From: a virus
Lineage: Duplodnaviria > Heunggongvirae > Uroviricota > Caudoviricetes
Reading direction: 5' to 3' (one strand)
Length of the DNA: 13,683 bases
Virus record (IMG/VR): IMGVR_UViG_2879742664_000002
Part shown: piece after piece, positions 1 through 13,683 of the stretch
How positions within the stretch are numbered: the first letter of the stretch is position 1
Layout: each line of letters opens with the position of its first letter
The notes under the pieces: model-generated
Seen by the model: the letters and a program-made list of their open reading frames with translations, nothing else
Told to the model about the DNA's origin: nothing
Database searches by the model: none
Translations under genes and position numbers: made by a program

Positions 1-1107
1 TTAAACCCATTCCTGACCTCGAGTATCGTTATAGCGATCGGTGGTTGCCTGGACTTTATGTCCTAGTAATGTTTTTGTATCGATACCCTGTGCACGGTAC
101 AGCCGTTCTGATAGAGAGCGTTGTTCATGAAATGTTGGCGGAGTTTTTCCTGCTGGTGGAATTATCCCAGCCAGATCCCGTGCTTTGGCAAAGTAGTCGC
201 TCAGGTTGTCTTTACTCATCGGCTTCGGTTGTTTCTGGTGCCGACTATGGATTAGATATGGACTTAATATTCTGTCTCGGCACCCATCAATAACTTCTTT
301 TAACGTTATCCCAATGGCATCACAGCGTAGTGTAAGCGGTAACGCCAGACGCATTCCGGTTTTTCCCTGGGTGATATGCAAGTGTTCGTTCCACGCATCT
401 GAAAAACGCATGTGGCAAATGTCATCACGGCGCTGACCAGTAACAATCGCAAGAAGCATTGCGTTACGGATAAAGTGTTTTTCAGGCGTTGCATTGTAAA
501 TTTTTTGCCAGTCTTCCATGGTGAGCCTGGCTCTGGTTACTTTAGGGATCGGTTTACGGGTAGCCTCCGGAGGATTCCATCCAGGAGGAACTTCCCCTGC
601 ATGCTGTGCTTCTTTATAAATATCAACCCATAATCCACGATTTACTCTCGCTGTGCTGACCATGTCTTTATCCAGCCACTCATCCAGTATTAATGCAAAG
701 TCTCTTACTTCCAGTTCTTTCAATGGGTGGTTTCCCAGACGGGAAACCAGGTATGCAGCCATTCGAGTTTTTTCTTTGTGAGTTGTAGCTGCAATATCTC
801 CATTTTTCAGTCGCGTGTCCTGTATTTTCAGATATCGATCAACCCATGCCTTTAATCTGATACCCCGACGTTTTGTTGCTGACGGACTTTCATCAATTTT
901 GCGCATGAAATATTCAGCTTCTGCTGCAGCTATTCGCTGATTGGCTGTGGAAGCGATTTTTTCTGCCTTACCTTTGTCTGTTCCGAGTCCGTGAAATTTT
1001 CCAGTCACAGGATTTTTATACTGGTAGTAAACTCTGCCAGTTCTGCGATCAAACTTTTCGTAAAGACCGGCTACGTCAGTGCTGTTTTTTCGTGGCCTCG
1101 GTGACAT
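1..1107 (-). CDS. int: Phage tyrosine integrase (lambdoid Int family)
   Basis: 368-aa minus-strand ORF; stop codon is bases 1-3, ATG at 1105-1107 with AAGGAG-type RBS just upstream (plus-strand ctcctt 1118-1123). C-terminal tyrosine-recombinase signature visible in translation (TGQRRDD, HEQRSLSERLY, LLGH, terminal Y in TDRY). Confidence 0.9.
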   Translation of the reverse strand: MSPRPRKNSTDVAGLYEKFDRRTGRVYYQYKNPVTGKFHGLGTDKGKAEKIASTANQRIAAAEAEYFMRKIDESPSATKRRGIRLKAWVDRYLKIQDTRLKNGDIAATTHKEKTRMAAYLVSRLGNHPLKELEVRDFALILDEWLDKDMVSTARVNRGLWVDIYKEAQHAGEVPPGWNPPEATRKPIPKVTRARLTMEDWQKIYNATPEKHFIRNAMLLAIVTGQRRDDICHMRFSDAWNEHLHITQGKTGMRLALPLTLRCDAIGITLKEVIDGCRDRILSPYLIHSRHQKQPKPMSKDNLSDYFAKARDLAGIIPPAGKTPPTFHEQRSLSERLYRAQGIDTKTLLGHKVQATTDRYNDTRGQEWV

Positions 1108-1311
1108 GAGTTAAAATCTCCTTCAGTGCATCATCATCGCCAGTATGAATTTCCGGCGCAATTCCCGTTTCACCTGGCCCAACAAATACTGCTCGGCGAT
1201 CTATCAGCCAACGCCCACGAATTTTTTGTGGTCTTGGAACGATGTATCCTAGTTTTCCGTATTTCACCAGGGTAGTGAGACTGAACCGTTTTGGTTTCCA
1301 CTCGTCGAGCG
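1076..1311 (-). pseudogene. xis: Excisionase (Xis-like) lacking its 5' end and start codon; truncated by IS1
   Basis: Phage-derived part of ORF 1076..1486 (LDEWKPKRFSLTTLVKYGKLGYIVPRPQKIRGRWLIDRRAV...) resembles lambda Xis as recalled (N-terminal ...LTLQEW... then a basic winged-helix region). Overlaps int start by 32 bp as xis-int pairs typically do. Reading frame upstream of 1311 is IS1 sequence. Confidence 0.55.
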
Positions 1312-1366
1312 GGTAATGCTGCCAACTTACTGATTTAGTGTATGATGGTGATTTTAAGGTGCTTGC

Positions 1367-1642
1367 GTGGCTTCCATTTCCATCAGATGTCCTTCCTGCT
1401 CCGCTACTGAAGGCGTGGTGCGTAACGGCAAAAGCACTGCCGGACATCAGCGCTATCTCTGCTCTCATTGCCGTAAAACATGGCAACTACAGTTCACTTA
1501 CACCGCCTCTCAGCCCGGTACGCACCAGAAAATCATTGATATGGCCATGAATGGCGTCGGATGTCGCGCCAGTGCACGCATTATGGGCGTTGGCCTCAAC
1601 ACGGTTTTACGTCACTTAAAAAACTCAGGCCGCAGTCGGTAA
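1367..1642 (+). CDS. insA: IS1 InsA (transposition inhibitor / N-terminal part of InsAB' transposase)
   Basis: 91-aa ORF starting at GTG 1367; translation [43 protein letters not shown]... matches the IS1 InsA zinc-finger/HTH protein as recalled. Confidence 0.9.
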
Positions 1643-1668
1643 CCTCGCGCATATAACCGGGCAGTGAT

Positions 1669-2064
1669 GTGATTGTCTGCGCTGAAATGGACGAACAGTG
1701 GGGCTACGTCGGTGCTAAATCACGTCAGCGCTGGCTGTTTTACGCGTATGACAGGATACGGAGGACGGTTGTGGCGCACGTCTTCGGTGAACGCACTCTG
1801 GCCACACTGGAGCGTCTTCTGAGCCTGCTGTCGGCCTTTGAGGTCGTGGTATGGATGACGGATGGCTGGCCGCTGTATGAATCACGCCTGAAGGGAAAGC
1901 TGCACGTTATCAGCAAGCGTTACACTCAGCGCATTGAGCGACATAATCTGAATCTGAGACAACATCTGGCAAGGCTGGGACGGAAGTCACTGTCGTTCTC
2001 AAAATCGGTGGAGCTGCATGACAAGGTCATCGGGCATTATCTGAACATAAAACACTATCAGTAA
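1669..2064 (+). CDS. insB: IS1 InsB frame (expressed as InsAB' fusion by -1 frameshift)
   Basis: 131-aa ORF ([28 protein letters not shown]...[15 protein letters not shown]) matching IS1 InsB as recalled. Frame is open upstream of 1669 and overlaps the insA end, consistent with programmed frameshifting at the A6C motif. Confidence 0.85.
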
Positions 2065-2079
2065 GTTGGAGTCATTACC

Positions 2080-3097
2080 CGCCGACTGCCTGGAATTTAT
2101 CTGGTCGTTACCCGAAAATTCTGTTGACCTGATAGTCACGGACCCGCCGTACTTTAAAGTGAAGCCTGAGGGCTGGGATAACCAGTGGAAGGGCGACGAT
2201 GATTACCTGAAGTGGCTGGAGCAGTGTCTGGCGCAGTTCTGGCGGGTGCTGAAACCTGCCGGAAGTCTTTACCTGTTCTGTGGTCATCGCCTGGCATCTG
2301 ATATCGAAATCATGATGCGTGAACGCTTCAGTGTGCTGAACCATATTATCTGAGCGAAGCCGTCCGGACGCTGGAACGGATGCAACAAGGAAAGCCTGCG
2401 GGCGTATTTCCCCGCCACAGAGCGCATTCTGTTCGCGGAACATTATCAGGGGCCGTACCGCCCGAAAGATGATGGCTATGAGGCGAAGGGCAGTGCACTG
2501 AAACAGCATGTGATGGCCCCGCTGATTTCTTACTTTCGTGATGCGCGAGCTGCCCTGGGGATAACGGCAAAACAGATTGCAGATGCCACAGGAAAGAAAA
2601 ACATGGTGTCGCACTGGTTCAGTGCCAGTCAGTGGCAGTTGCCGAATGAAAGCGATTATCTGAAATTACAGGCGCTGTTTGCCCGGGTGGCAGAAGAGAA
2701 GCATCGGCGTGGTGAACTGGAAAAGCTCCACCACCAGCTGGTGGATACGTATACCTCACTGAACCGGCAGTATGCGGAGCTGCTGAGTGAATATAAACAT
2801 CTGCGGCGGTATTTTGGCGTGACGGTGCAGGTGCCGTATACCGATGTGTGGACGCATAAACCGGTGCAGTTCTATCCCGGGAAACATCCGTGCGAAAAAC
2901 CGGCAGAAATGCTGCAGCAGATAATCAGCGCTAGCAGTCGTCCGGGTGACCTGATTGCAGATTTTTTCATGGGGTCGGGTTCGACAGTGAAAGCGGCACT
3001 GGCGCTCGGGCGTCGTGCAATTGGCGTTGAGCTGGAGACTGAACGTTTTGAGCAGACGGTTCGGGAAGTACAGGATTTAGTCAGCCAGAACGGATGA
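2080..3097 (+). pseudogene. Beta-class DNA methyltransferase (DPPY type, probably N6-adenine), N-terminally truncated by IS1 and interrupted by in-frame TGA at 2351-2353
   Basis: A single frame carries motif IV (LIVTDPPY), an HPCEKP motif, and motif I (DFFMGSGST) near the C-terminus, with stop at 3095-3097. The only interruption is TGA 2351-2353 in the sequence NHII*AKPSGRWNG. No native start codon downstream of the IS1 end; first in-frame start (TTG 2066) lies inside IS1. Confidence 0.7.
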
Positions 3098-3137
3098 TAT
3101 TGAAGAATTAATTACGCGTCGTTATTATGCGGCTCCC

Positions 3138-3213
3138 GGCCCTTTAGCTCAGTGGTGAGAGCGAGCGACTCATAATCGCCAGGTCGCTGGTTCAAATCCA
3201 GCAAGGGCCACCA
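3138..3213 (+). tRNA. ileZ: tRNA with CAT anticodon, ileX/ileY-like (tRNA-Ile2, lysidine-type; tRNAscan would call it Met)
   Basis: Hand-folded cloverleaf: acceptor ggccctt/aagggcc, D arm gctc-agtggtga-gagc, anticodon stem agcga/tcgcc with loop ctCATaa, T arm gctgg-ttcaaat-ccagc, discriminator A, encoded CCA. Gene symbol follows the prophage tRNA trio of Stx phages as recalled. Confidence 0.85.
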
Positions 3214-3220
3214 TCACATA

Positions 3221-3297
3221 CCGCCATTAGCTCATCAGGAAAGAGCGCCAGCCTTCGAAGCTGGCTGCGCGGGGTTCAAGTCCCCGATGGCGGTCCA
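3221..3297 (+). tRNA. argN: tRNA-Arg, anticodon read as TCG
   Basis: Hand-folded cloverleaf: acceptor ccgccat/atggcgg, D arm gctc-atcaggaaa-gagc, anticodon stem ccagc/gctgg with loop ctTCGaa, T arm cgggg-ttcaagt-ccccg, encoded CCA. Anticodon and symbol assignment are from manual folding and memory, not a tRNA-finder run. Confidence 0.75.
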
Positions 3298-3310
3298 TTA
3301 TCTGCATCAT

Positions 3311-3387
3311 GCGTTGTTAGCTCAGCCGGACAGAGCAATTGCCTTCTAAGCAATCGGTCACTGGTTCGAATCCAGTACAACGCGCCA
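3311..3387 (+). tRNA. argO: tRNA-Arg, anticodon TCT (reads AGA)
   Basis: Hand-folded cloverleaf: acceptor gcgttgt/acaacgc, D arm gctc-agccggaca-gagc, anticodon stem attgc/gcaat with loop ctTCTaa, T arm actgg-ttcgaat-ccagt, discriminator G, encoded CCA. Confidence 0.8.
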
Positions 3388-3401
3388 CACTTATTTTCCC
3401 T

Positions 3402-3427
3402 GGCTCGCTTTTGCGGGCTTTTTTTTT
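3402..3427 (+). terminator. Rho-independent terminator after the tRNA cluster
   Basis: Stem gctcgc (3403-3408) / gcgggc (3413-3418) with one G-U pair, tttt loop, followed by a run of 9 T (3419-3427). Confidence 0.55.
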
Positions 3428-3623
3428 AAATGTCTCACAATTCAGACGGTTGACTGTTGTCTGGTTTGCGGGGAGTTTGTTAAAAGAAACTGGCATGGTG
3501 AATCCCCCTGTGCGGAGGGGCAATCAGCGAGTAGGTATATGGGATAATCGCGGATTCAGGTGCTGGTACTGAATTCACCGGGAGGCACCCGGCACCATGC
3601 AATGGCACATAGCGCCACTCTCC

Positions 3624-3650
3624 AGCCCCTCTCCGGAGGGGCTTTCTTGT
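3624..3650 (+). terminator. GC-rich hairpin with T-rich tail (candidate plus-strand terminator)
   Basis: 8-bp stem agcccctc (3624-3631) / gaggggct (3636-3643), loop tccg, then ttcttgt. Confidence 0.4.
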
Positions 3651-3653
3651 GGG

Positions 3654-3683
3654 CAAAAAAAGCCCGCGCTGGGAGACGCGGGC
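3654..3683 (-). terminator. Candidate minus-strand rho-independent terminator
   Basis: Stem gcccgcg (3662-3668) / cgcgggc (3677-3683) with 8-nt loop, preceded on the plus strand by an A7 run, i.e. hairpin followed by T7 when read on the minus strand. Confidence 0.4.
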
Positions 3684-3876
3684 GGCAAGGAATAAACAAT
3701 AAAACGTGAAGTAATATTTCAGCTGGCGAATAATACCCCATAGTAGTCACTCTGCGCAACTGCGCGGTCTTTTTCGAATTGCGGGCTGTCGTCTCTCTTC
3801 TGCCATTGTCCTGTAACTTCCGGACTTCAGCCCGCTCCTCATTTTACTCACAATATTATCCCGGCCGGGAGGATTC

Positions 3877-4956
3877 ATGGCTTTTAAACACTATGATGTT
3901 GTCAGGGCGGCGTCGCCGTCAGATCTTGCGGAAAAGCTGACACATAAACTGAAAGAGGGCTGGCAGCCGTTTGGTAGTCCGGTGGCCATAACCCCTTATA
4001 CTCTGATGCAGGCGATTGCAGCAGAAGGTGCAGTAATCAGCGCCACCAGCGACCCGGAGTATTACTTTGTTGTGGTTCTGGCAGGGCAGTCAAACGGCAT
4101 GTCGTATGGTGAAGGCCTTCCGCTGCCGGGGACATATGACCGTCCGGACCCGCGTATTAAGCAACTGGCGCGTCGCAGTACGGTGACACCGGGCGGTGCA
4201 GCATGCAAATATAACGACATCATTCTGGCGGACCATTGTCTGCATGATGTGCAGGACATGAGCCGTCTTAACCATCCGAAAGCGGACCTGTCAAAGGGGC
4301 AGTACGGAACCGTGGGGCAGGGGCTGCATATCGCCAAAAAACTGCTGCCGTTTATACCGGCGAATGCGGGCATTCTGCTGGTTCCGTGCTGTCGTGGTGG
4401 TTCAGCGTTCACCACCGGAGCTGATGGCACATACAGTGACGCGAGTGGTGCCTCGGAGAATTCAACCCGCTGGGGTGTGGACAAGCCGCTGTATAAGGAC
4501 CTTATCGGTCGAACAAAAGCGGCACTGGAGAAGAACCCGAAAAATGTGCTGTTTGCCGTGGTGTGGATGCAGGGGGAATTTGATTTTGGCGGTACGCCGG
4601 CAAATCATGCCGCACAGTTTGGTGCGCTGGTTGATAAATTCCGTGCAGACCTGGCGGATATGGCAGGCCAGTGCGTCGGTGGCTCTGCTGGCGGTGTTCC
4701 CTGGATATGCGGGGACACGACGTATTTCTGGAAGCAGAAGAACGAATCCACGTACCAGACGGTGTACGGCAGCTATAAAAATAAAACGGAAAAGAATATC
4801 CATTTCGTACCGTTCATGACCGATGAGAACGGGGTGAATGTGCCGACGAACAAACCGGAAGAAGACCCGGACATTCGGGGTATCGGTTATTACGGTTCGA
4901 AATGGCGTGACAGCTCAGCCACCTGGACGTCACAGGACAGGGCGAGCCATTTCTAG
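3877..4956 (+). CDS. Prophage NanS-p-like sialate O-acetylesterase (N-terminal DUF1737-like region plus SGNH/SASA esterase domain), probably C-terminally truncated
   Basis: ATG 3877 with GGGAGGA RBS (3866-3872). Translation begins MAFKHYDVVRAASPSDLAEKL... and contains the esterase motif VVVLAGQSNGMSYGEG. ORF ends at TAG 4954-4956, exactly where IS66-like sequence begins; relatives are recalled as roughly 600 aa or more. Confidence 0.7.
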   Translation: MAFKHYDVVRAASPSDLAEKLTHKLKEGWQPFGSPVAITPYTLMQAIAAEGAVISATSDPEYYFVVVLAGQSNGMSYGEGLPLPGTYDRPDPRIKQLARRSTVTPGGAACKYNDIILADHCLHDVQDMSRLNHPKADLSKGQYGTVGQGLHIAKKLLPFIPANAGILLVPCCRGGSAFTTGADGTYSDASGASENSTRWGVDKPLYKDLIGRTKAALEKNPKNVLFAVVWMQGEFDFGGTPANHAAQFGALVDKFRADLADMAGQCVGGSAGGVPWICGDTTYFWKQKNESTYQTVYGSYKNKTEKNIHFVPFMTDENGVNVPTNKPEEDPDIRGIGYYGSKWRDSSATWTSQDRASHF

Positions 4957-5291
4957 ACTGGCCCCCTGAATCTCCAGACAACCAGTATCACTTAAATAAG
5001 TGATAGTCTTAATACTAGTTTTTAGACTAGTCATTGGAGTACAGATGATTGATGTCTTAGGGCCGGAGAAACGCAGACGGCGTACCACACAGGAAAAGAT
5101 CGCAATTGTTCAGCAGAGCTTTGAACCGGGGATGACGGTCTCCCTCGTTGCCCGGCAACATGGTGTAGCAGCCAGCCAGTTATTTCTCTGGCGTAAGCAA
5201 TACCAGGAAGGAAGTCTTACTGCTGTGGCCGCCGGAGAACAGGTTGTTCCTGCCTCTGAACTTGCTGCCGCCATGAAGCAGATTAAAGAAC
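4957..5291 (+). mobile_element. IS66-family left-end fragment (leader plus 5' part of orf1), cut by IS629
   Basis: Contains an orf1 (HTH_Tnp_1-type, ISEc8-like as recalled) preceded by an 88-bp leader with palindromes. Right boundary is the IS629 left terminus at 5292. Left boundary is approximate; no GTAAGCG-type terminus seen at this end. Confidence 0.5.
5045..5291 (+). pseudogene. IS66-family orf1/TnpA (helix-turn-helix accessory protein), 3'-truncated by IS629
   Basis: ATG 5045 with GGAG RBS. Translation [58 protein letters not shown]...MKQIKEL runs into the IS629 terminus after about 82 codons; the tail NRPGNPGD of the ORF is IS629-encoded. Confidence 0.6.
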
Positions 5292-5345
5292 TGAACCGCC
5301 CCGGGAATCCTGGAGACTAAACTCCCTGAGAAAGAGGTAAACAGG

Positions 5346-5672
5346 ATGACTAAAAATACTCGTTTTTCCCCCGAAGTCCGTCAGAGGGCGATTCGTATGG
5401 TTCTGGAAAGTCAGGGCGAATATGACTCACAGTGGGCGGCAATTTGTTCCATTGCCCCAAAGATTGGCTGTATACCGGAGACTCTGCGTGTCTGGGTACG
5501 CCAGCATGAGCGGGATACCGGAGGCGGTGATGGCGGGCTCACCACCGCTGAACGTCAGCGTCTGAAAGAGCTGGAACGTGAAAATCGTGAACTGCGCCGC
5601 AGTAACGATATCCTTCGCCAGGCTTCCGCTTATTTTGCGAAGGCGGAGTTCGACCGCCTCTGGAAAAAGTGA
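5346..5672 (+). CDS. IS629 OrfA (HTH DNA-binding part of the transposase)
   Basis: 108-aa [45 protein letters not shown]... with leucine-zipper-like C-terminus, typical IS3-family OrfA. Confidence 0.9.
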
Positions 5673-6559
5673 TGCCACTGCTGGATAAGCTGCGTAAGCT
5701 GTACGGGGTCGGACCGGTATGCAGTGAACTACATATTGCCCCGTCAACGTATTACCACTGTCAGCAACAGCGACATCATCCTGATAAACGCAGTGCCCGT
5801 GCGCAGCGCGATGACTGGCTGAAGAAAGAGATACTGCGCGTATACGATGGGAATCATCAGGTATACGGTGTGCGTAAAGTCTGGCGTCAGTTGTTACGGG
5901 AAGGTATCAGAGTGGCCAGATGCACTGTGGCACGTCTCATGGCGGTTATGGGACTTGCCGGTGTTCTCCGGGGTAAAAAGGTCCGTACGACCATCAGCCG
6001 GAAAGCCGTTGCCGCAGGCGACCGCGTAAACCGTCAGTTCGTGGCAGAACGACCTGACCAGCTGTGGGTGGCTGATTTTACTTACGTCAGCACATGGCAG
6101 GGCTTCGTCTATGTGGCGTTCATTATTGATGTGTTTGCCGGATACATCGTGGGGTGGCGGGTCTCATCGTCCATGGAAACGACATTCGTGCTGGATGCTC
6201 TGGAGCAGGCGTTATGGGCCCGTCGACCGTCCGGCACGGTCCATCACAGTGATAAAGGTTCTCAGTATGTATCGCTGGCCTACACACAGCGGCTTAAGGA
6301 AGCCGGATTACTGGCATCAACAGGAAGTACAGGCGACTCGTATGACAACGCGATGGCGGAGAGCATCAATGGTCTTTACAAAGCGGAGGTAATACACCGT
6401 AAGAGCTGGAAAAACCGTGCAGAAGTGGAACTGGCCACACTCACGTGGGTGGACTGGTATAATAATCGACGATTGCTGGAAAGGCTGGGCCACATCCCTC
6501 CGGCAGAAGCAGAAAAAGCTTATTATGCTTCCATCGGAAACGATGATCTGGCAGCCTGA
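5669..6559 (+). CDS. IS629 OrfB (DDE catalytic domain; expressed as OrfAB by -1 frameshift)
   Basis: 296-aa ORF overlapping the orfA end in the -1 frame; DDE-type integrase-fold hallmarks ([24 protein letters not shown]). Confidence 0.9.
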
Positions 6560-6602
6560 GTTCACAGATAAAACACTCTCCAGGAAACCCGGGGCGGTTC
6601 AG

Positions 6603-6953
6603 GGTGAGGGTGGTGAAGGCCATCTGAGTTCTTTCTTTGTCCAGACAGATAAAGCCAGTATTAATGTTGCATACCATCATACAGTTAATCAACAAAAAGA
6701 ACTTGGCACGTTTGGCGCATTCGACCATGACTGGCATACGCTTGCATTTAAATTTAAGGGCAGTAACAGCATTAATGTTACTCCGGTGCTTGATGGTGTG
6801 GATGGACAGGCGTTTGACCTGGTGAAATGGGCCAATACTGCTAATGGACTCAACAGGTTTGTCATTACGGATATTACAGGTAGTGCAGAAACCTACCCTG
6901 TACTTATTGATACGGTGGAAGTTAAAGCAAACAAAGCTGGAGCAGCCGCATAA
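6603..6953 (+). pseudogene. Start-less C-terminal ORF fragment (116 codons) resuming at the IS629 right end; possibly the displaced 3' part of the nanS-p-like gene
   Basis: Reading frame is open from the first base after IS629 to TAA 6951-6953 (GEGGEGHLSSFFVQTDKASINVAYHH...VEVKANKAGAAA); no start codon outside the IS. Assignment to nanS-p is inference only. Confidence 0.4.
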
Positions 6954-6958
6954 TTGCT

Positions 6959-6995
6959 AAAAAAAGCCGCCAGCGGCAGGAATGGAAGCTGGCGG
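6959..6995 (-). terminator. Hairpin with flanking A/T run (minus-strand-oriented intrinsic terminator or bidirectional stop)
   Basis: 8-bp stem ccgccagc (6967-6974) / gctggcgg (6988-6995), 13-nt loop, A7 run at 6959-6965 on the plus strand (T7 after the hairpin on the minus strand). Confidence 0.35.
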
Positions 6996-7092
6996 AGGTA
7001 ATCCCAATGGAGAATGTAAAGAAAAGATGCTTTCGTACATTGGTTTTTTAAATGAAAACAATTCTCATTGTCAACCATAACGGTAAGAAATT

Positions 7093-7275
7093 ATGACATT
7101 TATTCATCAGGTGATGCTGTACTTCTGTACGGCGGTCTGTGTGCTGTATCTTCTTTCGGGTGGGTACAGGGCTGTGCGCGATTTCTGGTGCAGGCAGATT
7201 GATAAAAGGGCCGCTGAGAAAATCAGCGCCAGTCAGTCAGCCGGAAGCAAACCCGAAGAACCCGTTACTCCTTAA
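7093..7275 (+). CDS. Hypothetical small protein with hydrophobic N-terminus (60 aa)
   Basis: ATG 7093, weak RBS; translation MTFIHQVMLYFCTAVCVLYLLSGG... then a charged tail. Competes with an overlapping alternative frame (7139..7546); weakly supported. Confidence 0.3.
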   Translation: MTFIHQVMLYFCTAVCVLYLLSGGYRAVRDFWCRQIDKRAAEKISASQSAGSKPEEPVTP

Positions 7276-7300
7276 CAACCCCTTTCAGCGAGAAAATCCC

Positions 7301-7546
7301 ATGTCAGAAATCACATCCCTGGTCACTGCAGAGGCAGTGAAGGAAGTCCTGCGCTCTGAAGAAGTCCGGAGCGCACTGAAACAGAAACTTCGCCAGAATC
7401 TTGAGTCGCGTCTTGATGCAGAAGTGGATGCCATTCTGGATGAGCTGCTGGGCGTAGCAGCGGTTCCTGAGCCGGAAGGTATCGCGGGTGACGGGAGTGC
7501 TTCAGATGGCGGTGAACCTACACCTGACAGCGACATGATGATGTAA
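7301..7546 (+). CDS. Hypothetical acidic protein (81 aa)
   Basis: ATG 7301 after a purine-rich stretch (gagaaaa); helical-looking, strongly acidic C-terminus (...[26 protein letters not shown]). Lies immediately upstream of the holin. Confidence 0.45.
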
Positions 7547-7622
7547 GCATGCGCAAGGGACCATCGGTGTGTGCCGGTGGTCTTTATATTGTTGTGAGCT
7601 TCCGGATTGCGGGAGACGGGGT

Positions 7623-7838
7623 ATGTACCAGATGGAAAAAATCACAACAGGTGTGTCATACACCACGTCAGCGGTGGGAACGGGCTACTGGTTCCTGCAG
7701 TTGCTGGACAGGTTTTCCCCGTCTCAGTGGGCGGCAATAGGCGTGCTGGGGAGTCTGTTGTTTGGGCTGCTGACATATCTGACTAACCTGTATTTCAAAA
7801 TCAGAGAGGACCGTCGTAAGGCGGCGCGGGGAGAGTAA
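7623..7838 (+). CDS. S: Holin, phage 21 S-like (pinholin type)
   Basis: 71-aa [74 protein letters not shown] with two hydrophobic segments and a basic C-terminus. RBS GGGAGACGGGG; two in-frame ATGs (7623, 7632). Confidence 0.8.
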
Positions 7839-7842
7839 AGCG

Positions 7843-8187
7843 ATGAAGAAAAAATACGAACTGGTTGTTAAAGGGATAAATAATTACCCGAATAAGATTA
7901 CTGTTACTGTGGCACTGGAAATTGGTGGGTATCCGTCACTGTTGTTGCCAGATGTGGCGATTAGTCTTGACCGTACTGAAGATGCCACGCTGGAGTTTTA
8001 CGAAGCTGAGGCGAAAAAGCAGGCGAAGCAGTTTTTCATGGATGTTGCTGCCGGGTTATGTGAAGGGGATGGTCCGTTGCCGGAAAAGCGCCCCGTAATT
8101 TTAGAGGCGCAGGATGTGTTGATAACCTACAGAGGAAAACTACCGGGAATAATTACTGGTTCTCTGAAGACTCCACCGCTGGCCTGA
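7843..8187 (+). CDS. Hypothetical soluble protein (114 aa) between holin and endolysin
   Basis: ATG 7843 only 5 bp after the holin stop with GGAGAG RBS; no hydrophobic segment; no family recognised by eye. Confidence 0.5.
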   Translation: MKKKYELVVKGINNYPNKITVTVALEIGGYPSLLLPDVAISLDRTEDATLEFYEAEAKKQAKQFFMDVAAGLCEGDGPLPEKRPVILEAQDVLITYRGKLPGIITGSLKTPPLA

Positions 8188-8237
8188 AGACTTAACATAT
8201 CCAGGGATTTGAAATCGATAAACCCTGATAAATATCC

Positions 8238-8771
8238 ATGAACACCAAAATCAAATACGGCCTGTCGGCTGCCGTTCTGGCGCTGATTGCCGCAGGTGCG
8301 CCTGCGCCTGAAATCCTCGACCAGTTTCTGGATGAAAAGGAAGGTAACCACACCACGGCATACCGTGATGGCGCGGGTATCTGGACCATCTGCCGCGGTG
8401 CCATCCTGGTGGATAGTAAACCTGTCGTCCCGGGCATGAAGTTGTCGAAGGAAAAATGCGACCAGGTCAACGCCATTGAGCGTGATAAGGCGCTGGCATG
8501 GGTGGAGCGCAATATTAAAGTGCCGCTGACCGAACCCCAGAAAGCGGGTATCGCGTCATTTTGTCCCTATAACATTGGCCCCGGTAAGTGTTTCCCGTCG
8601 ACGTTTTACAGACGGATTAATGCTGGTGACCGCAGGGGAGCATGCGAAGCGATTCGCTGGTGGATTAAGGACGGTGGCAGAGACTGCCGTATCCGCTCAA
8701 ATAATTGCTACGGTCAGGTATCCCGGCGAGACCAGGAAAGTGCGCTGGCGTGCTGGGACATCGACAGATAA
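8238..8771 (+). CDS. R: SAR endolysin (T4-lysozyme-like GH24 muramidase with N-terminal signal-anchor-release segment)
   Basis: 177-aa ORF; N-terminal Gly/Ala-rich weakly hydrophobic segment (GLSAAVLALIAAGAPAP) followed by the catalytic E...D...T signature (EGNHTTAYRDGAGIWTICRG). Confidence 0.85.
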   Translation: MNTKIKYGLSAAVLALIAAGAPAPEILDQFLDEKEGNHTTAYRDGAGIWTICRGAILVDSKPVVPGMKLSKEKCDQVNAIERDKALAWVERNIKVPLTEPQKAGIASFCPYNIGPGKCFPSTFYRRINAGDRRGACEAIRWWIKDGGRDCRIRSNNCYGQVSRRDQESALACWDIDR

Positions 8772-8861
8772 GCAGAATATTTTGCTGAAAATAAGGCATG
8801 AGCACGCGGACGGATAACACGAAATCCTGCGAACTGGCGAAACGTAAGTGAATAAAAGTAA

Positions 8862-8900
8862 AAACCCCGTTTGTTGGCACCAGGCGGGGTTTTGTGTTTC
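8862..8900 (+). terminator. Intrinsic terminator/attenuator-like hairpin between R and the downstream small ORFs
   Basis: Stem aaaccccg (8862-8869) / cggggttt (8885-8892), extendable with G-U pairs to about 13 bp, followed by tttgtgtttc. Confidence 0.5.
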
Positions 8901-8926
8901 TGACCTTGAGTAAGGCAAGGGAGAAC

Positions 8927-9109
8927 ATGGCGAAGTATAAACGAATTCTGTTGAGGTTGACCATGAAAAACGGCCTTGAACTGAAAGCGCCTGTAACTGA
9001 TGACATCAGCAGAGCACTGGCTTTTGCCATTAAGTGGGTGGCGGTCGGTGTTGCTGTGTCCCCGATGCTGTATGGGCTGGCAAAACTGGTCATTGCGTTG
9101 AAATCGTGA
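8927..9109 (+). CDS. Hypothetical small membrane protein (60 aa)
   Basis: ATG 8927 with AAGGGAG upstream; basic N-terminal half (MAKYKRILLRLTMKNG...) and one C-terminal hydrophobic helix (WVAVGVAVSPMLYGLAKLVIAL). Confidence 0.4.
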   Translation: MAKYKRILLRLTMKNGLELKAPVTDDISRALAFAIKWVAVGVAVSPMLYGLAKLVIALKS

Positions 9110-9123
9110 AGGGAGGATTAAGC

Positions 9124-9255
9124 ATGTCAGACAAACTCATAACGCTGGCGAAGATCCTCTGTGTAATTGTCGGCATTTCATTTTCACTAATGCTGGTTGC
9201 TCTTTTTCTTTCCATGGCCTGGATGATGTTGTCTTCGTCGGGGCTGCTGGGGTGA
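9124..9255 (+). CDS. Hypothetical small hydrophobic protein (43 aa), translationally coupled to Rz
   Basis: ATG 9124 with strong GGGAGGA RBS at 6-nt spacing; almost entirely hydrophobic (ITLAKILCVIVGISFSLMLVALFLSMAWMML); stop TGA 9253-9255 overlaps the Rz GTG start (9252-9254). Confidence 0.45.
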   Translation: MSDKLITLAKILCVIVGISFSLMLVALFLSMAWMMLSSSGLLG

Positions 9256-9650
9256 ACATAAACCGAATGCTTTCCGCGTTTACCGTTATTCTGCTGGTGG
9301 TCTGTGGTGCGCTGTGGCTGGCAACAGACCATTACCGTGATAACGCCATCACCTACAAAGCGCAGCGCGATAAAAAAGCCAGAGAGCTGGAGCTGGCAAA
9401 CGCAACCATTACTGACATGCAGCAGCGCCAGCGTGATGTTGCCGCTGGTCGTAAGCGCCTGCGGATCAACGCCACCTGCTCCGGTACCGTGCGTGAAGCC
9501 ACCGGCACCTCCGGAATGGATAATGCAACCGGCCCCCGACTGGCAGACACCGCTGAACGGGATTATTTCACCCTCAGAGAGCGGTTGATGACAATGCAGA
9601 AGCAACTGGAAGGGGCGCAGGAATATATCCGCACTCAGTGTATTAACTAG
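9252..9650 (+). CDS. Rz: Rz inner-membrane spanin (i-spanin)
   Basis: 132-aa ORF (start GTG 9252 or ATG 9267) with N-terminal TM helix then HYRDNAITYKAQRDK...RLADTAERDYFTLRERLMTMQKQLEGAQEYI, closely resembling lambda Rz as recalled. Confidence 0.85.
   Translation: MNINRMLSAFTVILLVVCGALWLATDHYRDNAITYKAQRDKKARELELANATITDMQQRQRDVAAGRKRLRINATCSGTVREATGTSGMDNATGPRLADTAERDYFTLRERLMTMQKQLEGAQEYIRTQCIN
9436..9588 (+). CDS. Rz1: Rz1 outer-membrane lipoprotein spanin (o-spanin), embedded in the +1 frame of Rz
   Basis: ATG 9436 inside Rz; MLPLVVSACGSTPPAPVPCVKPPAPPEWIMQPAPDWQTPLNGIISPSESG has a lipobox (VSAC) and proline-rich body like lambda Rz1. Confidence 0.8.
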   Translation: MLPLVVSACGSTPPAPVPCVKPPAPPEWIMQPAPDWQTPLNGIISPSESG

Positions 9651-9673
9651 TATTTTTGTTATCCGGAGAATGC

Positions 9674-9898
9674 ATGAAGAAATTACTGGTAACCGTAAAG
9701 CCTTTTCAGGGAACAATTCCGTTCCGTATTTTGCAGCGTGGTCGTGTTCTTGTTGAAGGTTCGTTCAGTGGTAAATGTACGCAATTACACTCCCGGACCT
9801 TTCAGGTGAATGCCACGAATGAAGAGCTAACCGTTGAGTGTACGATGAATGCCGCTAAATGCCGCATGGTATCCGCTGCATTACAGCCAGTGTGTTGA
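9674..9898 (+). CDS. Hypothetical small protein (74 aa, four Cys)
   Basis: ATG 9674 with GGAGA RBS at 5-nt spacing, 24 bp after the Rz stop; no signal peptide or TM segment; no recognisable family. Confidence 0.45.
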   Translation: MKKLLVTVKPFQGTIPFRILQRGRVLVEGSFSGKCTQLHSRTFQVNATNEELTVECTMNAAKCRMVSAALQPVC

Positions 9899-9933
9899 GC
9901 GACCTTATTAACCATGCGCGGTATTGTCGCCGT

Positions 9934-9996
9934 ATCCCCGCATTAACAGAGACCGCAGCCCGACCGGGAGACTCCTCTGCGCGAGTGTGCGGGGAT
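9934..9996. repeat. Nested inverted-repeat element (potential long stem-loop) in a 338-bp non-coding region
   Basis: Outer 9-bp inverted repeat atccccgca (9934-9942) / tgcggggat (9988-9996) enclosing inner inverted repeat cagag (9947-9951) / ctctg (9975-9979); GC-rich, no T-tract on either side. Confidence 0.35.
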
Positions 9997-10179
9997 AATC
10001 AAAAACGATACACACCGGGGTTTACCGCGTTAACGGAGCGCGGCGTTGTCCCCTCATGGTCGCTGGTCCGGTGCGATGGTGGAAGAAACCGGACGATGTG
10101 TTACCTCGCAAGCTCTGTTATGTCATGTGTCTGATTTGTGATTTAAGTCGGATAATTGTCGTTGCCATTAAGCAGAGGA

Positions 10180-10222
10180 TTGATGACCGACAGGGTGGCA
10201 TTGTTAGAATAAGACTTATTCT
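10180..10222 (+). promoter_or_regulatory. Candidate promoter with overlapping perfect palindromic operator upstream of the TonB-C lipoprotein gene
   Basis: TTGATG (10180-10185) and TAGAAT (10205-10210) separated by 19 bp; 17-bp perfect palindrome AGAATAAG-A-CTTATTCT at 10206-10222 overlaps the -10-like hexamer, 14 bp before ATG 10237. Confidence 0.3.
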
Positions 10223-10236
10223 TATCTGTGCCGGGA

Positions 10237-10569
10237 ATGAAAATGAAAAGAAACCTTCCGTTAATTATTTTGTTGTCTTCTCTGGTTATGGGCTGTACGC
10301 AACATAAAACAGATATGCCCCGACAGTTGGTTAAGGCATTACCACAATATCCGGCCTATGCAGCGGCAAATTATATAAAGGGACGGGTTGATGTGAAGTT
10401 TGATATTGGTGCTGATGGTACTGTCACCCGAATTGAGTTTATCCGTTCAGAGCCGCACCATTTGTTTGATGAGCAGGTTGTAAAGGCGATGGCAAAATGG
10501 CGATTTGAGAAGGACAGGCCGTGTAAAGGCGTGAAGAAAACGTTTATCTTTAGTCCTTCTGCACCCTGA
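10237..10569 (+). CDS. Lipoprotein with TonB C-terminal domain (TonB_C-like), prophage accessory gene
   Basis: Signal peptide with lipobox (MKMKRNLPLIILLSSLVMGC, Thr at +2). Mature region PQYPAYAAANYIKGRVDVKFDIGADGTVTRIEFIRSEPHHLFDEQVVKAMAKWRFE aligns by eye with E. coli TonB C-terminal domain ([34 protein letters not shown]...FEREVKNAMRRWRYE). Start could be ATG 10237 or 10243. Confidence 0.75.
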   Translation: MKMKRNLPLIILLSSLVMGCTQHKTDMPRQLVKALPQYPAYAAANYIKGRVDVKFDIGADGTVTRIEFIRSEPHHLFDEQVVKAMAKWRFEKDRPCKGVKKTFIFSPSAP

Positions 10570-10700
10570 TTATTTCATCAGAAATTAATTATCACTCTGT
10601 TGTTATTCTGTACATCCCGGCAGGGTAAGTCTTGTTCCGTCGGATATGAAGATGAAATATTGTTGGAGGACAGTGGGTACCTGCTCCTGTAACCGAACGT

Positions 10701-10901
10701 TCATTTCTCGTTATTTTTCATGCTGGCCGGGCGCAGATGCGTTGCATCTGTTGCCAGCCTTCTCCTGCAGGCTTCAATAACCCACGCTGAAAAGTTTCCT
10801 GAACCTTTCAGATCAAGAGCGATGTTAATTTGTTCAATCATCTGGTTTGGAAATCGGATGTTGCGGGTTGTTGTTCTGCGGGTTCTGTTCTTTGATGACA
10901 T
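10701..10901 (-). CDS. Small ribbon-helix-helix (CopG/Arc-like) DNA-binding protein
   Basis: 66-aa minus-strand ORF, ATG at 10899-10901 with GGGGA upstream; basic N-terminal strand then two helices (TRNIRFPNQMIEQINIALDLKGSGNFSAWVIEACRRRL). Convergent with the lipoprotein gene. Confidence 0.6.
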   Translation of the reverse strand: MSSKNRTRRTTTRNIRFPNQMIEQINIALDLKGSGNFSAWVIEACRRRLATDATHLRPASMKNNEK

Positions 10902-10986
10902 AATGTTTCCCCATATTCAGTGTTGCTGATTTGTATTATCTGAAGTTGCTTTTACGTTAATTTGATGCAGATCAATCAATACGATA

Positions 10987-12415
10987 GTAAGCGTCAACGG
11001 AGCACCGTATTGACGCTTATTTATTGGTGAGTGCTACGTTCCATGGCAGGAGTTCGTCAACACGGTTGGAAGGCCATTCCGGCAGTACGCTCAGGATATA
11101 GCGCAGATACGCTTCCGGATCGATACCGTTCAGTCGGCAGGTGCCGATCAGCCCGTACAGTAGCGCACCACGCTCTCCACCGTGATCGCTGCCGAAGAAC
11201 ATAAAGTTTTTCTTTCCGAGACAGACTGCACGAAGCGCTCTTTCCGCGGCATTATTATCCGCCTCAGCCAGACCATCATCACTGAAGTTGCACAACGCAA
11301 CCCAGTGCTTCCTGATATACCGGAACGCATCTCTCAGACGGCATTTTTTCGATAACGTGTGTTCTTTCTCCTGCATCAGCTTATACAGGGAAGTCAGTAG
11401 CGGTTTACTCTGCATTTGCCTGACCGCCAGGCGTTCAGACACCGGCAACCCGCGTATTTCGTGCTCGATGGCGTACAGCTCACCGATTAGTTTCAGGGCT
11501 TCTTCCGCTGTCGCGCTTTTGGTACTGATATATACATCGTGGACTTTGCGCCGCGCATGAGCCCAGCATCCTGCTTCCGTCAACGCGCCGCCTTCTCGTT
11601 CGGCACTGAACAGCCGATCGTAACCATTAAACGCATCTGCCTGCAGGATACCCCGGAAGGGACTAAGGTGCTGCTCCGGATGTTTACCCTGATGGTCCGG
11701 TGAGTAGGCGAACCAGACCGCCGGAGGCTCTGGCGAACCGGCATTCCTGTCATCCCGGACATACGTCCAGATATATCCTGTTTTCGCCTTCTTCCTGCCC
11801 GGTGCCAGCACTTTTACTGGTGTGTCATCAGTGTGAACTTTGCGGCTGTTCATTACATAACGGTACAGAGCATCATTCAGCGGCGTCATTAACTGGCAGC
11901 ACGCGTCAACCCAGTTGGAGAGTAATGCACGGCTCAGTTCGACACCCTGACGGGCAAAAATTTCACTCTGACGATACAGTGGCAGGTGTTCGCAGTATTT
12001 TCCCGTTAACACGCGGGCAAGTAACCCCGGGCCCGCGATACCACGCTCTATCGGACGGGATGGTGCCGGTGCTTCAACGATGCAGTCACATTTTGTACAG
12101 GCTTTTTTTACCCGTTCTGTGCGGATCACTTTCAGAGCGCTGCTCACCAGTTCCAGTTGTTCTGCGCTGACTTCCCCCAGATAATCCAGCTCACCGCCAC
12201 ACTCCGGGCAACAGCTTTCTTCTGGCTCCAGGCGATTTATTTCGCGGGGCAGATGCTCCGGTAACGGGCGACGATGACGAGACTGTCGCAACTGGCGGGG
12301 AACCTGCGGATCGTCTTCCCGCCCACTGTAACGATCACTGTCCTGTTCGCGTTGTTTCAGCAGGGCCTCAGCCTGTTCAACTTCACGACGCAGTTTTTCA
12401 GAACGGGTACCGAAC
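10987..12415 (-). mobile_element. IS66-family element, right-end portion (terminal repeat plus tnpC), truncated by IS629
   Basis: GTAAGCG terminal motif at 10987-10993 (typical IS66 terminus as recalled); tnpC-type ORF on the minus strand; abuts the IS629 left terminus at 12416. Confidence 0.7.
11017..12415 (-). pseudogene. IS66-family transposase TnpC (DDE_Tnp_IS66 type), 5'-truncated by IS629
   Basis: Frame open from the IS629 junction with no ATG (FGTRSEKLRREVEQAEALLKQ... then CCPECGGEL zinc-ribbon motif, LPLYRQSEIFARQGVELSRALL, DDTPVKV, C-terminal LLPWNV); stop at 11017-11019. About the first 50 codons are missing. Confidence 0.8.
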
Positions 12416-12469
12416 TGAACCGCCCCGGGAATCCTGGAGACTAAACTCCCTGAGAAAGAGGTAAACAGG

Positions 12470-12796
12470 ATGACTAAAAATACTCGTTTTTCCCCCGAAG
12501 TCCGTCAGAGGGCGATTCGTATGGTTCTGGAAAGTCAGGGCGAATATGACTCACAGTGGGCGGCAATTTGTTCCATTGCCCCAAAGATTGGCTGTACACC
12601 GGAGACTCTGCGTGTCTGGGTACGCCAGCATGAGCGGGATACCGGAGGCGGTGATGGCGGGCTCACCACCGCTGAACGTCAGCGTCTGAAAGAGCTGGAA
12701 CGTGAAAATCGTGAACTGCGCCGCAGTAACGATATCCTTCGCCAGGCTTCCGCTTATTTTGCGAAGGCGGAGTTCGACCGCCTCTGGAAAAAGTGA
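12470..12796 (+). CDS. IS629 OrfA (copy 2)
   Basis: 108-aa ORF identical to copy 1 except Ile to Thr at residue 43 ([12 protein letters not shown]). Confidence 0.9.
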
Positions 12797-13683
12797 TGCC
12801 ACTGCTGGATAAGCTGCGTAAGCTGTACGGGGTCGGACCGGTATGCAGTGAACTACATATTGCCCCGTCAACGTATTACCACTGTCAGCAACAGCGACAT
12901 CATCCTGATAAACGCAGTGCCCGTGCGCAGCGCGATGACTGGCTGAAGAAAGAGATACTGCGCGTATACGATGGGAATCATCAGGTATACGGTGTGCGTA
13001 AAGTCTGGCGTCAGTTGTTACGGGAAGGTATCAGAGTGGCCAGATGCACTGTGGCACGTCTCATGGCGGTTATGGGACTTGCCGGTGTTCTCCGGGGTAA
13101 AAAGGTCCGTACGACCATCAGCCGGAAAGCCGTTGCCGCAGGCGACCGCGTAAACCGTCAGTTCGTGGCAGAACGACCTGACCAGCTGTGGGTGGCTGAT
13201 TTTACTTACGTCAGCACATGGCAGGGCTTCGTCTATGTGGCGTTCATTATTGATGTGTTTGCCGGATACATCGTGGGGTGGCGGGTCTCATCGTCCATGG
13301 AAACGACATTCGTGCTGGATGCTCTGGAGCAGGCGTTATGGGCCCGTCGACCGTCCGGCACGGTCCATCACAGTGATAAAGGTTCTCAGTATGTATCGCT
13401 GGCCTACACACAGCGGCTTAAGGAAGCCGGATTACTGGCATCAACAGGAAGTACAGGCGACTCGTATGACAACGCGATGGCGGAGAGCATCAATGGTCTT
13501 TACAAAGCGGAGGTAATACACCGTAAGAGCTGGAAAAACCGTGCAGAAGTGGAACTGGCCACGCTCACGTGGGTGGACTGGTATAATAATCGACGATTGC
13601 TGGAAAGGCTGGGCCACATCCCTCCGGCAGAAGCAGAAAAAGCTTATTATGCTTCCATCGGAAACGATGATCTGGCAGCCTGA
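12793..13683 (+). CDS. IS629 OrfB (copy 2; expressed as OrfAB by frameshift)
   Basis: 296-aa ORF matching copy 1 at the protein level; stop codon is the last three bases of the window. Confidence 0.9.

Follow-up and report, generated by a model that had tools for sequence, protein, structure and literature searches.

What divided the esterase gene of this prophage, in what order did the events occur, and could either part still serve? The gene encodes a sialate O-acetylesterase of the NanS-p type and lies in a virus record of 13,683 nucleotides (IMGVR_UViG_2879742664_000002, Caudoviricetes), which was analyzed over its full length and is called the window here. The initial annotation, made from the letters alone, held that the gene was split at 3877-6953 by nested insertion sequences (IS), an IS66 element carrying an IS629. 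The division of the gene by IS DNA was borne out, and the outer element proved to be IS2. We consider it about 85% probable that the locus represents a pseudogene of nanS-p within a decayed prophage of Shigella flexneri serotype 6, cut by the left end of an IS2 and by a complete IS629 with loss of part of the gene. The region is made up as follows.

3877..6953, plus strand: esterase region, two nanS-p pieces and IS DNA.
3877..4953, plus strand: 5' nanS-p piece (prophage sialate O-acetylesterase), codons 1-359; homology to esterase genes ends at 4953 and mobile DNA begins at 4954.
4954..5291, plus strand: IS2 (IS3 family), left end only, nt 1-338 of 1331, comprising the left inverted repeat (IRL) TAGACTGGCCCCC... 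and, at 5045-5290, codons 1-82 of orfA/insC.
5292..6601, plus strand: complete element of the IS629/IS1203 group (IS3 family), 1310 bp, with both terminal repeats, orfA at 5346-5672 and orfB at 5669-6559.
6602..6953, plus strand: 3' nanS-p piece, beginning with the last base of the interrupted codon Pro520, codons 521-636 from 6603, TAA at 6951-6953.
6525..6953, plus strand: hybrid open reading frame (ORF) of 142 codons, with its ATG inside the right end of IS629 and in frame into the esterase 3' piece.

The intact 1911-bp SASA-family esterase gene of Escherichia coli ML35 (locus L001, 4015-5925; 636 residues, WP_000874468.1) served as the reference for both pieces. The 5' piece forms an ORF from the ATG at 3877 to 4956, 359 codons followed by TAG, and its 359 residues correspond to ML35 residues 1-374, the linker being shorter. 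By blastn, window 4054-4953 aligned with L001 4237-5136 at 95.8% nucleotide identity. The Pfam models for DUF1737 (PF08410, E 9.7e-16, residues 3-50) and SASA (PF03629, E 1.3e-11) matched this piece, which also carries all four SGNH blocks as they have been defined for NanS-p (PMC10462455): GQSN at 70-73 (Ser72), CCRGG at 171-175, MQGE at 231-234, and RASH, block IV, at 355-358 (His358). Its catalytic residues correspond to Ser19 and His301, the catalytic residues of NanS (PMC9063846).

The 116 residues read from 6603 were identical to ML35 residues 521-636 at 116 of 116 positions, a match that we judge from the alignment to lie far beyond chance. At the nucleotide level, window 6602-7846 aligned with L001 5574-6818 at 99.4% identity, with 100% over the first 699 nt (6602-7300). 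The 3' piece matched Pfam DUF6645 (E 1e-24, profile positions 42-116 of 119) and, in the PDB, the solved NanS-p C-terminal domain 6YP6, and it covers approximately the final half of the C-terminal domain, a lectin-like jelly-roll (DUF6645). When the intact ML35 protein was compared with the PDB, its residues 72-393 fell on NanS 3PT5 and its residues 426-630 on 6YP6. Segments 3877-4953 and 6602-6953 form the N-terminal and C-terminal portions of one NanS-p-type architecture, both mapping to a single gene as residues 1-374 and 521-636. The initial annotation had set two possibilities against its own view, an unrelated origin of the downstream fragment and a natural end of full-length homologues at the position of 4956. 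The first is contradicted by the identity with the NanS-p C terminus, and the second by the homologues themselves, as none of the 120 best cluster representatives stopped at RASHF and all ran on past that position with S[T/S/A]WARRGIISDRLATAIL.

Relative to ML35, the gene has lost 437 bp, made up of codons 375-519 plus two of the three bases of codon 520, and gained 1648 bp of IS DNA. The 3' piece stands in a different frame from the 5' piece, and there is no in-frame lectin-like fusion. The downstream frame had been described as 116 codons without a start; from 6603 it does consist wholly of esterase codons, but it is open upstream into the right end of IS629, where in-frame ATGs occur at 6525 and 6543. 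The 142-codon hybrid ORF is most likely an annotation artefact, and its product would probably be non-functional; it is carried in some public annotations as a DUF6645 or 'YjhS' protein. For the 359-residue product itself, S. flexneri and S. boydii entries already exist in public databases, under the names 'YjhS' or 'hypothetical protein'.

The esterase ORF had been taken to end at 4956 exactly where the mobile element starts, and these coordinates are right, mobile DNA beginning at 4954 and the TAG stop codon being nt 1-3 of the element. That element is IS2 and not, as first proposed, IS66-like. The sequence 4954-5291 aligned without gaps to nt 1-338 of the IS2 of K-12 W3110, with three mismatches (335 of 338 positions identical, 99.1%), and it matched thousands of IS2 copies. 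Its ORF corresponds to residues 1-82 of the 121-residue IS2 TnpA/InsC repressor (NCBIfam NF006928, E 5e-54), while IS66 TnpA models reached only 1e-12 to 1e-17, under their own cut-offs. IS66 was rejected for this segment, which starts with TAGACTGG rather than GTAAGCG, has no IS66 terminal repeat, tnpB or tnpC, and scores better with the IS2 model. The misassignment probably arose from the HTH_Tnp_1 fold common to IS3-family OrfA and IS66 TnpA, together with a genuine IS66 element interrupted by IS629 that lies from 10987 onward in the same window. The right end of IS2 and its 5-bp target duplication are gone; 993 bp of the element are missing, and the stub is cut at nt 338 by IS629, with an ambiguity of 1 nt in the position of the boundary between the two elements. 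The presumed IS2 target, ATTTC (4949-4953), is seen on the left side only. The same five bases form the target duplication of a W3110 IS2 between yidZ and yieE (L012 1509-1513 and 2845-2849), which is probably a coincidence or a mild IS2 target preference.

The adjoining IS629 carries an ALIL frameshift pseudoknot, a -1 frameshift signal, at 5627-5743 (116 bits). Its identity to the annotated IS1203 copies from E. coli that produces Shiga toxin (STEC), the only copies used in this comparison, was approximately 95.6%. Its termini are identical over 14 nt and at 23 of the first 25 positions. AAC precedes the element and GGG follows it, with no 3-bp target duplication, whereas other simple IS629 insertions in the loci fetched have the 3-bp duplications GTG, GAA, CAT and AAC; one flank of the esterase copy has therefore been replaced.

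Which flank was replaced is indicated by three other prophages. In L018, an IMG/VR contig 99.9% identical to the ML35 type, the esterase is intact up to ...GGAATGGCCGGG (...GGCCGGG) and is followed directly by the IRL of IS629. In L017, identical to the ML35 type at 100% for 4.3 kb downstream, and in L015, from a more divergent prophage, the right inverted repeat (IRR) of IS629 is followed by GGGTGAGG; both carry precisely the hybrid ORF that spans this junction in the window. The last base of the left junction is L001 5576 and the first base of the right junction is L001 5574, which gives a normal target duplication, GGG, at ML35 codons 520-521. These junctions show the boundary between IS629 and GGG in the window to be an original, canonical insertion junction, and point to the boundary between IS2 nt 338 and IS629 as a secondary, rearranged one. 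The latter reads AAAGAAC followed by TGAACCGCCCCGGGAATCC. GAAC precedes both IS629 copies of the window, at 5288-5291 in IS2 and at 12412-12415 in the IS66 tnpC, and it resembles the IS629 terminus TGAAC; a target preference is possible.

Two alleles of the locus were found among related records. Type W is the arrangement of the window, in which IS2 nt 1-338 is followed by IS629 read from IRL to IRR and then by GGGTGAGG. It was also present in at least eight other assemblies, and the loci that carry it are L004-L007, L009-L011, L013 and L024. In type L, IS2 nt 1-338 is followed by IS629 in the inverted orientation, from IRR to IRL, then by CTGGCGAATAGCGGAATGGCC, and then by GGGTGAGG, such that the esterase resumes 21 nt earlier, at L001 5553, with CTGGCGAATAGC. 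Type L was carried by L023 (IMGVR_UViG_2627853869_000011, 3298-4642) and L025 (IMGVR_UViG_2636416166_000012, 6009-6043). Both belong to the same prophage remnant as the window, L023 matching window 1-9898 at 99.7-100% identity and L025 matching window 6602-12415 at 99.93%. Between the IS629 of L023 and that of the window, 4 of 1310 positions differed, whereas the flanks, about 8.6 kb, differed by two substitutions and one 12-nt indel, which suggests that the two alleles carry two different copies of IS629. Because type W lacks 21 nt that are present in type L, type L is not derivable from type W without a donor. Inversion of a single IS629 in place was rejected as the relation between the alleles on the grounds of the 21-nt difference and the four substitutions between the copies.

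These observations led us to a history that runs through an intermediate with two copies of IS629. It is the most economical that we could construct, and we hold its particular order of events with a little less than even confidence. First, IS2 would have inserted into ATTTC, just 3' of the codon for the catalytic histidine. An IS629 in the opposite orientation to the present one would then have become joined to IS2 nt 338, with loss of esterase DNA up to L001 5552, giving type L as it survives in L023 and L025; this step could have followed the scheme of the initial annotation with IS2 in the place of IS66. A second IS629 would next have entered the GGG site, as in ML35-type E. coli prophages, 21 nt downstream, leaving inverted copies 24 bp apart with the expected sequence GGTTCA-CTGGCGAATAGCGGAATGGCCGGG-TGAACC between and at their ends. 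This unstable quasi-palindrome would finally have collapsed through deletion between the IS termini, identical over 14 nt (TGAACCGCCCCGGG), with removal of the first copy and the spacer to yield type W. Such a collapse would account for the common IS2 nt 338 position joined to opposite IS ends, for the 21-nt difference, and for the canonical right junction. Tentatively, types W and L may record a natural flip of an IS by insertion and collapse, in which a 2.6-kb quasi-palindrome was resolved in a way that mimics inversion in place.

The initial annotation had proposed an insertion, an IS629 placed within it, and a deletion. The split gene, the IS DNA and the loss of 437 bp and of most of the first IS stood, whereas IS66 did not. 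Its order, in which IS629 entered orf1 of the first IS and a deletion then ran rightward into the esterase, is not the best reading for the window, where the boundary between IS629 and GGGTGAGG is a canonical insertion junction; it fits type L better than it fits the window.

Several points weigh against our account. The inverted two-copy intermediate was seen in none of the collections scanned, an intact IS2 in nanS-p was not found in the IMG/VR and JGI metagenome scans for the IS2 right junction, and the E. coli complete genomes contained no simple IS629 insertion at nt 338 of IS2. The order of events is itself an inference. To the left of the IS DNA the identity to ML35 is 95.8%, rising sharply to 100% on the right, no E. 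coli complete genome was more than 97.1% identical to the 5' fragment, and the two fragments might stem from different nanS-p alleles joined by recombination. The non-function of the 359-residue product is argued from alignment and context. In other scans, the exact-pattern search of species-representative genomes yielded no esterase-IS2 junction and no left junction between esterase and IS629; the JGI metagenomes yielded no esterase-IS629 junction and no right-hand junction of an intact IS2; and no E. coli complete genome had the esterase-IS2 junction, the junction of IS2 nt 338 with IS629, or the junction of IS629 with the esterase 3' piece. Loci L002 and L003, which had appeared as joint junction matches, were rejected as unrelated IS1203 insertions elsewhere in or near nanS-p.

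Three other histories were weighed against the two-copy collapse. In the first, two IS629 copies in direct orientation, one at AAC in IS2 (nt 336-338) and one at GGG in the region for the esterase C-terminal domain, recombined through RecA with deletion of one copy and approximately 1.4 kb, and both junctions of the window would be primary. Each flank agrees with a simple insertion, the window's second IS629 also having an AAC duplication and the GGG site being documented, and IS629 is multicopy in these genomes. Type L would then require an independent IS629 of opposite orientation at the very same nucleotide of IS2, and the two-copy precursor was found in no genome; we regard this history as doubtful.

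A single IS629 inserted into IS2 orfA at nt 336-338, followed by one IS629-adjacent rightward deletion of the rest of IS2 and 437 bp of the esterase, would make the IS2-IS629 boundary primary and the boundary with GGG a deletion endpoint. This would explain the AAC and GGG flanks without a target duplication; IS629-adjacent deletions have been documented in E. coli O157, some of them dependent on IEE (PMC9943667), and the scheme is a good fit to type L in L023 and L025. The supposed endpoint is, however, to the base a genuine IS629 target with a GGG duplication in the ML35-type loci L017 and L018 and in L015, and type L joins IS2 nt 338 to the other end of IS629 with 21 more esterase bases, which is not derivable from the arrangement of the window. 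A single deletion of this kind appears improbable for the window.

It is about equally improbable that the two pieces came from different gene copies, recombination across IS629 or the gene between two prophages having joined the 5' part of one allele to an IS629-tagged 3' part of the ML35 type. The contrast in nucleotide identity to ML35, 95.8% over 4054-4953 and 100% over 6602-7300, favours such a hybrid. Among the 120 best cluster representatives, moreover, the nearest full-length relatives of the 5' piece have another type of C-terminal domain, approximately 52% identical to the 3' piece. Yet shuffling of catalytic and C-terminal domains is normal in nanS-p (PMC10462455), so a mosaic that existed before the insertions explains the data equally. 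The catalytic core is approximately 98% identical in protein sequence across all alleles and hence non-discriminating, and type L retains 21 more ML35-type bases contiguous with the 3' piece.

It is scarcely credible that the 359 codons encode an esterase of the single-domain NanS kind, naturally short and functional, with an unrelated piece downstream. Chromosomal NanS is active without a lectin-like domain (3PT5; PMC9063846), and a start codon, a Shine-Dalgarno sequence and four SGNH blocks are present in the ORF. Its stop codon, however, is supplied by IS2, NanS and each of the 120 homologues examined extend past its end point, and the downstream piece is identical at 116 of 116 residues to an intact NanS-p C terminus.

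There is a separate question as to whether the truncated esterase is made or active. The initial annotation had pointed to the GQSN block in the truncated product; this block (70-73) and the other SGNH blocks do lie within the 359 residues, but the end of the catalytic domain is missing. A Shine-Dalgarno sequence, GGAGG, graded strong, stands just 5' of the ATG at 3877. The ORF ends one residue after His358, the catalytic histidine being penultimate, with approximately 20 residues of the 3PT5 extent of the catalytic domain missing and the whole lectin-like domain absent. An AlphaFold2 model of the closest full-length homologue (P0001, from a 12-sequence alignment) had a mean pLDDT (predicted local distance difference test) of 34.9, and no structural argument here rests on it.

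The transcriptional setting was examined by comparison with L008, a gut metagenome contig (Hadza/Nepal; ENA ERZ4567471, 8001-9151) that is 97.7% identical to the window and has the same esterase-IS2 junction, the contig stopping 74 nt into IS2. The L008 prophage is far less decayed, with Q, RusA, DUF968 and the full start of the methylase gene upstream, and by this comparison the early region, Q and pR' are all missing from the prophage of the window. In lambdoid phages the late promoter is located in the Q region. An IS1 stands in the window where L008 keeps Q and the methylase start. A consensus scan of the stretch from the tRNAs to the ATG revealed no sigma-70-like promoter, and the plus strand there carries three terminator-like hairpins (3402-3419, 3624-3643 and 3752-3767). 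Given the end of the ORF one residue past His358, the lost domains, the loss of Q and pR', and the half jelly-roll of the 3' piece, the 5' piece is probably a pseudogene and both pieces are most likely non-functional. The smaller possibility that the 359-residue product is still an active esterase in Shigella appears very unlikely on the same grounds.

The prophage around the esterase is itself a remnant. The window was 100% identical to CP026811.1 over 12,956 bases, the extent of the fetched locus; this accession is the chromosome of S. flexneri serotype 6 strain 64-5500 (PMC9455713). Genome comparison in S. flexneri 6 placed the remnant between potC and potB. The window holds what is left of a lambdoid prophage in heavy decay, and its other features are these.

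1-1107, minus strand: integrase.
1312-2079, plus strand: IS1, 768 bp, bridging the int/xis end of the prophage to about codon 14 of the late-region DNA methylase.
1312-3097 (a side observation on this interval): late-region N6/N4 DNA methylase, first 41 nt gone, with an in-frame stop at 2354-2356 that leaves ORFs of 95 and 195 residues.
3138-3387, plus strand: tRNA cluster, Met-CAT at 3138-3213, Arg-TCG at 3221-3297 and Arg-TCT at 3311-3387.
3464-3654, plus strand: STnc100-family small RNA (Rfam RF02076, 139 bits) between the phage tRNAs and nanS-p, its 3' end at a terminator-like hairpin.
3' of the esterase region, in order: DUF1378, DUF826, holin, DUF1327, lysozyme and Rz, then a TonB_C lipoprotein gene and a DUF3950 gene.
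10987 to the window end: IS66-family element interrupted by a second IS629, the last feature of the window.
10987..13683, minus strand: extent of that IS66-family element in the window, ISEc43-like (approximately 95.6% identity), with terminal GTAAGCG at 10987 and a tnpC fragment at 11017-12291 (minus).

In the genuine nest at the right of the window, the IS66 tnpC is interrupted by an IS629 running from 12416 to beyond the window end on the plus strand, a simple insertion with the 3-bp duplication AAC. The IS66-family element is complete in CP026811.1, with tnpA, tnpB and tnpC, and reaches about 14805 (locus L019). Its outer flanks, ylcI-like DNA and, opposite, a remnant of a tail-fibre-assembly gene with potB, show no 8-bp duplication, and the element therefore marks a deletion that took the morphogenesis genes. 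An identical 424-residue TnpC fragment occurs at several loci of other genomes (L020-L022), adjoined by an IS3-family transposase in at least two of them (L021 and L022); the IS66-IS629 composite therefore appears to be multicopy.

An additional, inverted IS629 was seen in the same remnant of one related strain, L005 (GCA_001188055.2, 12165-13474), within the DUF1327 gene (about 8040 in the window) between the holin and lysozyme genes and with the target duplication CAT. IS629 has therefore remained mobile in this lineage. Identity to the ML35 prophage falls to about 86% at the lysozyme region (8273-8925), and such changes in identity along the window represent either the mosaicism usual in lambdoid phages or a mark left by recombination at IS629.

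For annotation, 4954-5291 should be recorded as an IS2 remnant rather than IS66, and the records of a 359-residue 'YjhS/hypothetical' protein and a 142-residue 'DUF6645' protein in S. flexneri 6 and S. boydii as two halves of a single dead nanS-p. The locus shows a lambdoid prophage eroded in Shigella by IS2, IS629, IS1 and IS66. The type W and type L polymorphism could be of use as a lineage marker, and it could be a natural test case for the resolution of closely spaced inverted IS copies.

Compared with known systems, the window gene is of the same three-domain type (Pfam DUF1737, SASA PF03629 and DUF6645) as the NanS-p genes Z1466/L0105 of 933W and vb_24B_21/gp84 of phi24B. It shares with them the GQSN and RASH blocks and the late-region order of tRNAs, nanS-p, DUF1378, DUF826, holin, lysozyme and Rz. 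It differs in lying in two pieces with the region of codons 375-520 lost, and its prophage differs in having no stx, in the loss of the early, Q and morphogenesis regions, and in its host, S. flexneri 6 rather than STEC. Good descriptions exist of the three-domain architecture of nanS-p and of the gene's interruption, often by IS629/IS1203 and in one case by an IS66-family element (PMC10462455; PMC8065619), with IS629/IS1203 insertions in or beside nanS-p reported for Stx2a phages (PMC10462455). A recent proposal is that DUF1737 serves as a capsid-decoration domain (bioRxiv 10.64898/2026.04.10.717836).

The whole catalytic core of chromosomal NanS (YjhS, 3PT5) aligns with the 5' piece, the intact ML35 homologue matching at E 3.5e-118 (query 72-393 on chain 15-332). 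NanS extends approximately 20 residues past its catalytic histidine (FSSAARRGIISDRFVEAILQ), whereas the window ORF extends only one. The IS2 stub keeps the IRL and the start of insC of the 1331-bp element and differs from it as a 338-bp remnant with no right end. The esterase IS629 agrees with IS629/IS1203 in its 1310-bp length, terminal repeats, orfA and orfB, and pseudoknot, and differs in lacking a target duplication because one of its flanks was replaced. With the IS66 family, 4954-5291 shares only the HTH_Tnp_1 fold of IS2 OrfA and IS66 TnpA. Set beside these systems, the locus is a case of ordinary IS-driven gene decay, another instance of an already known kind in a cryptic prophage of Shigella, and its only mildly unusual aspect is the type W and type L polymorphism.

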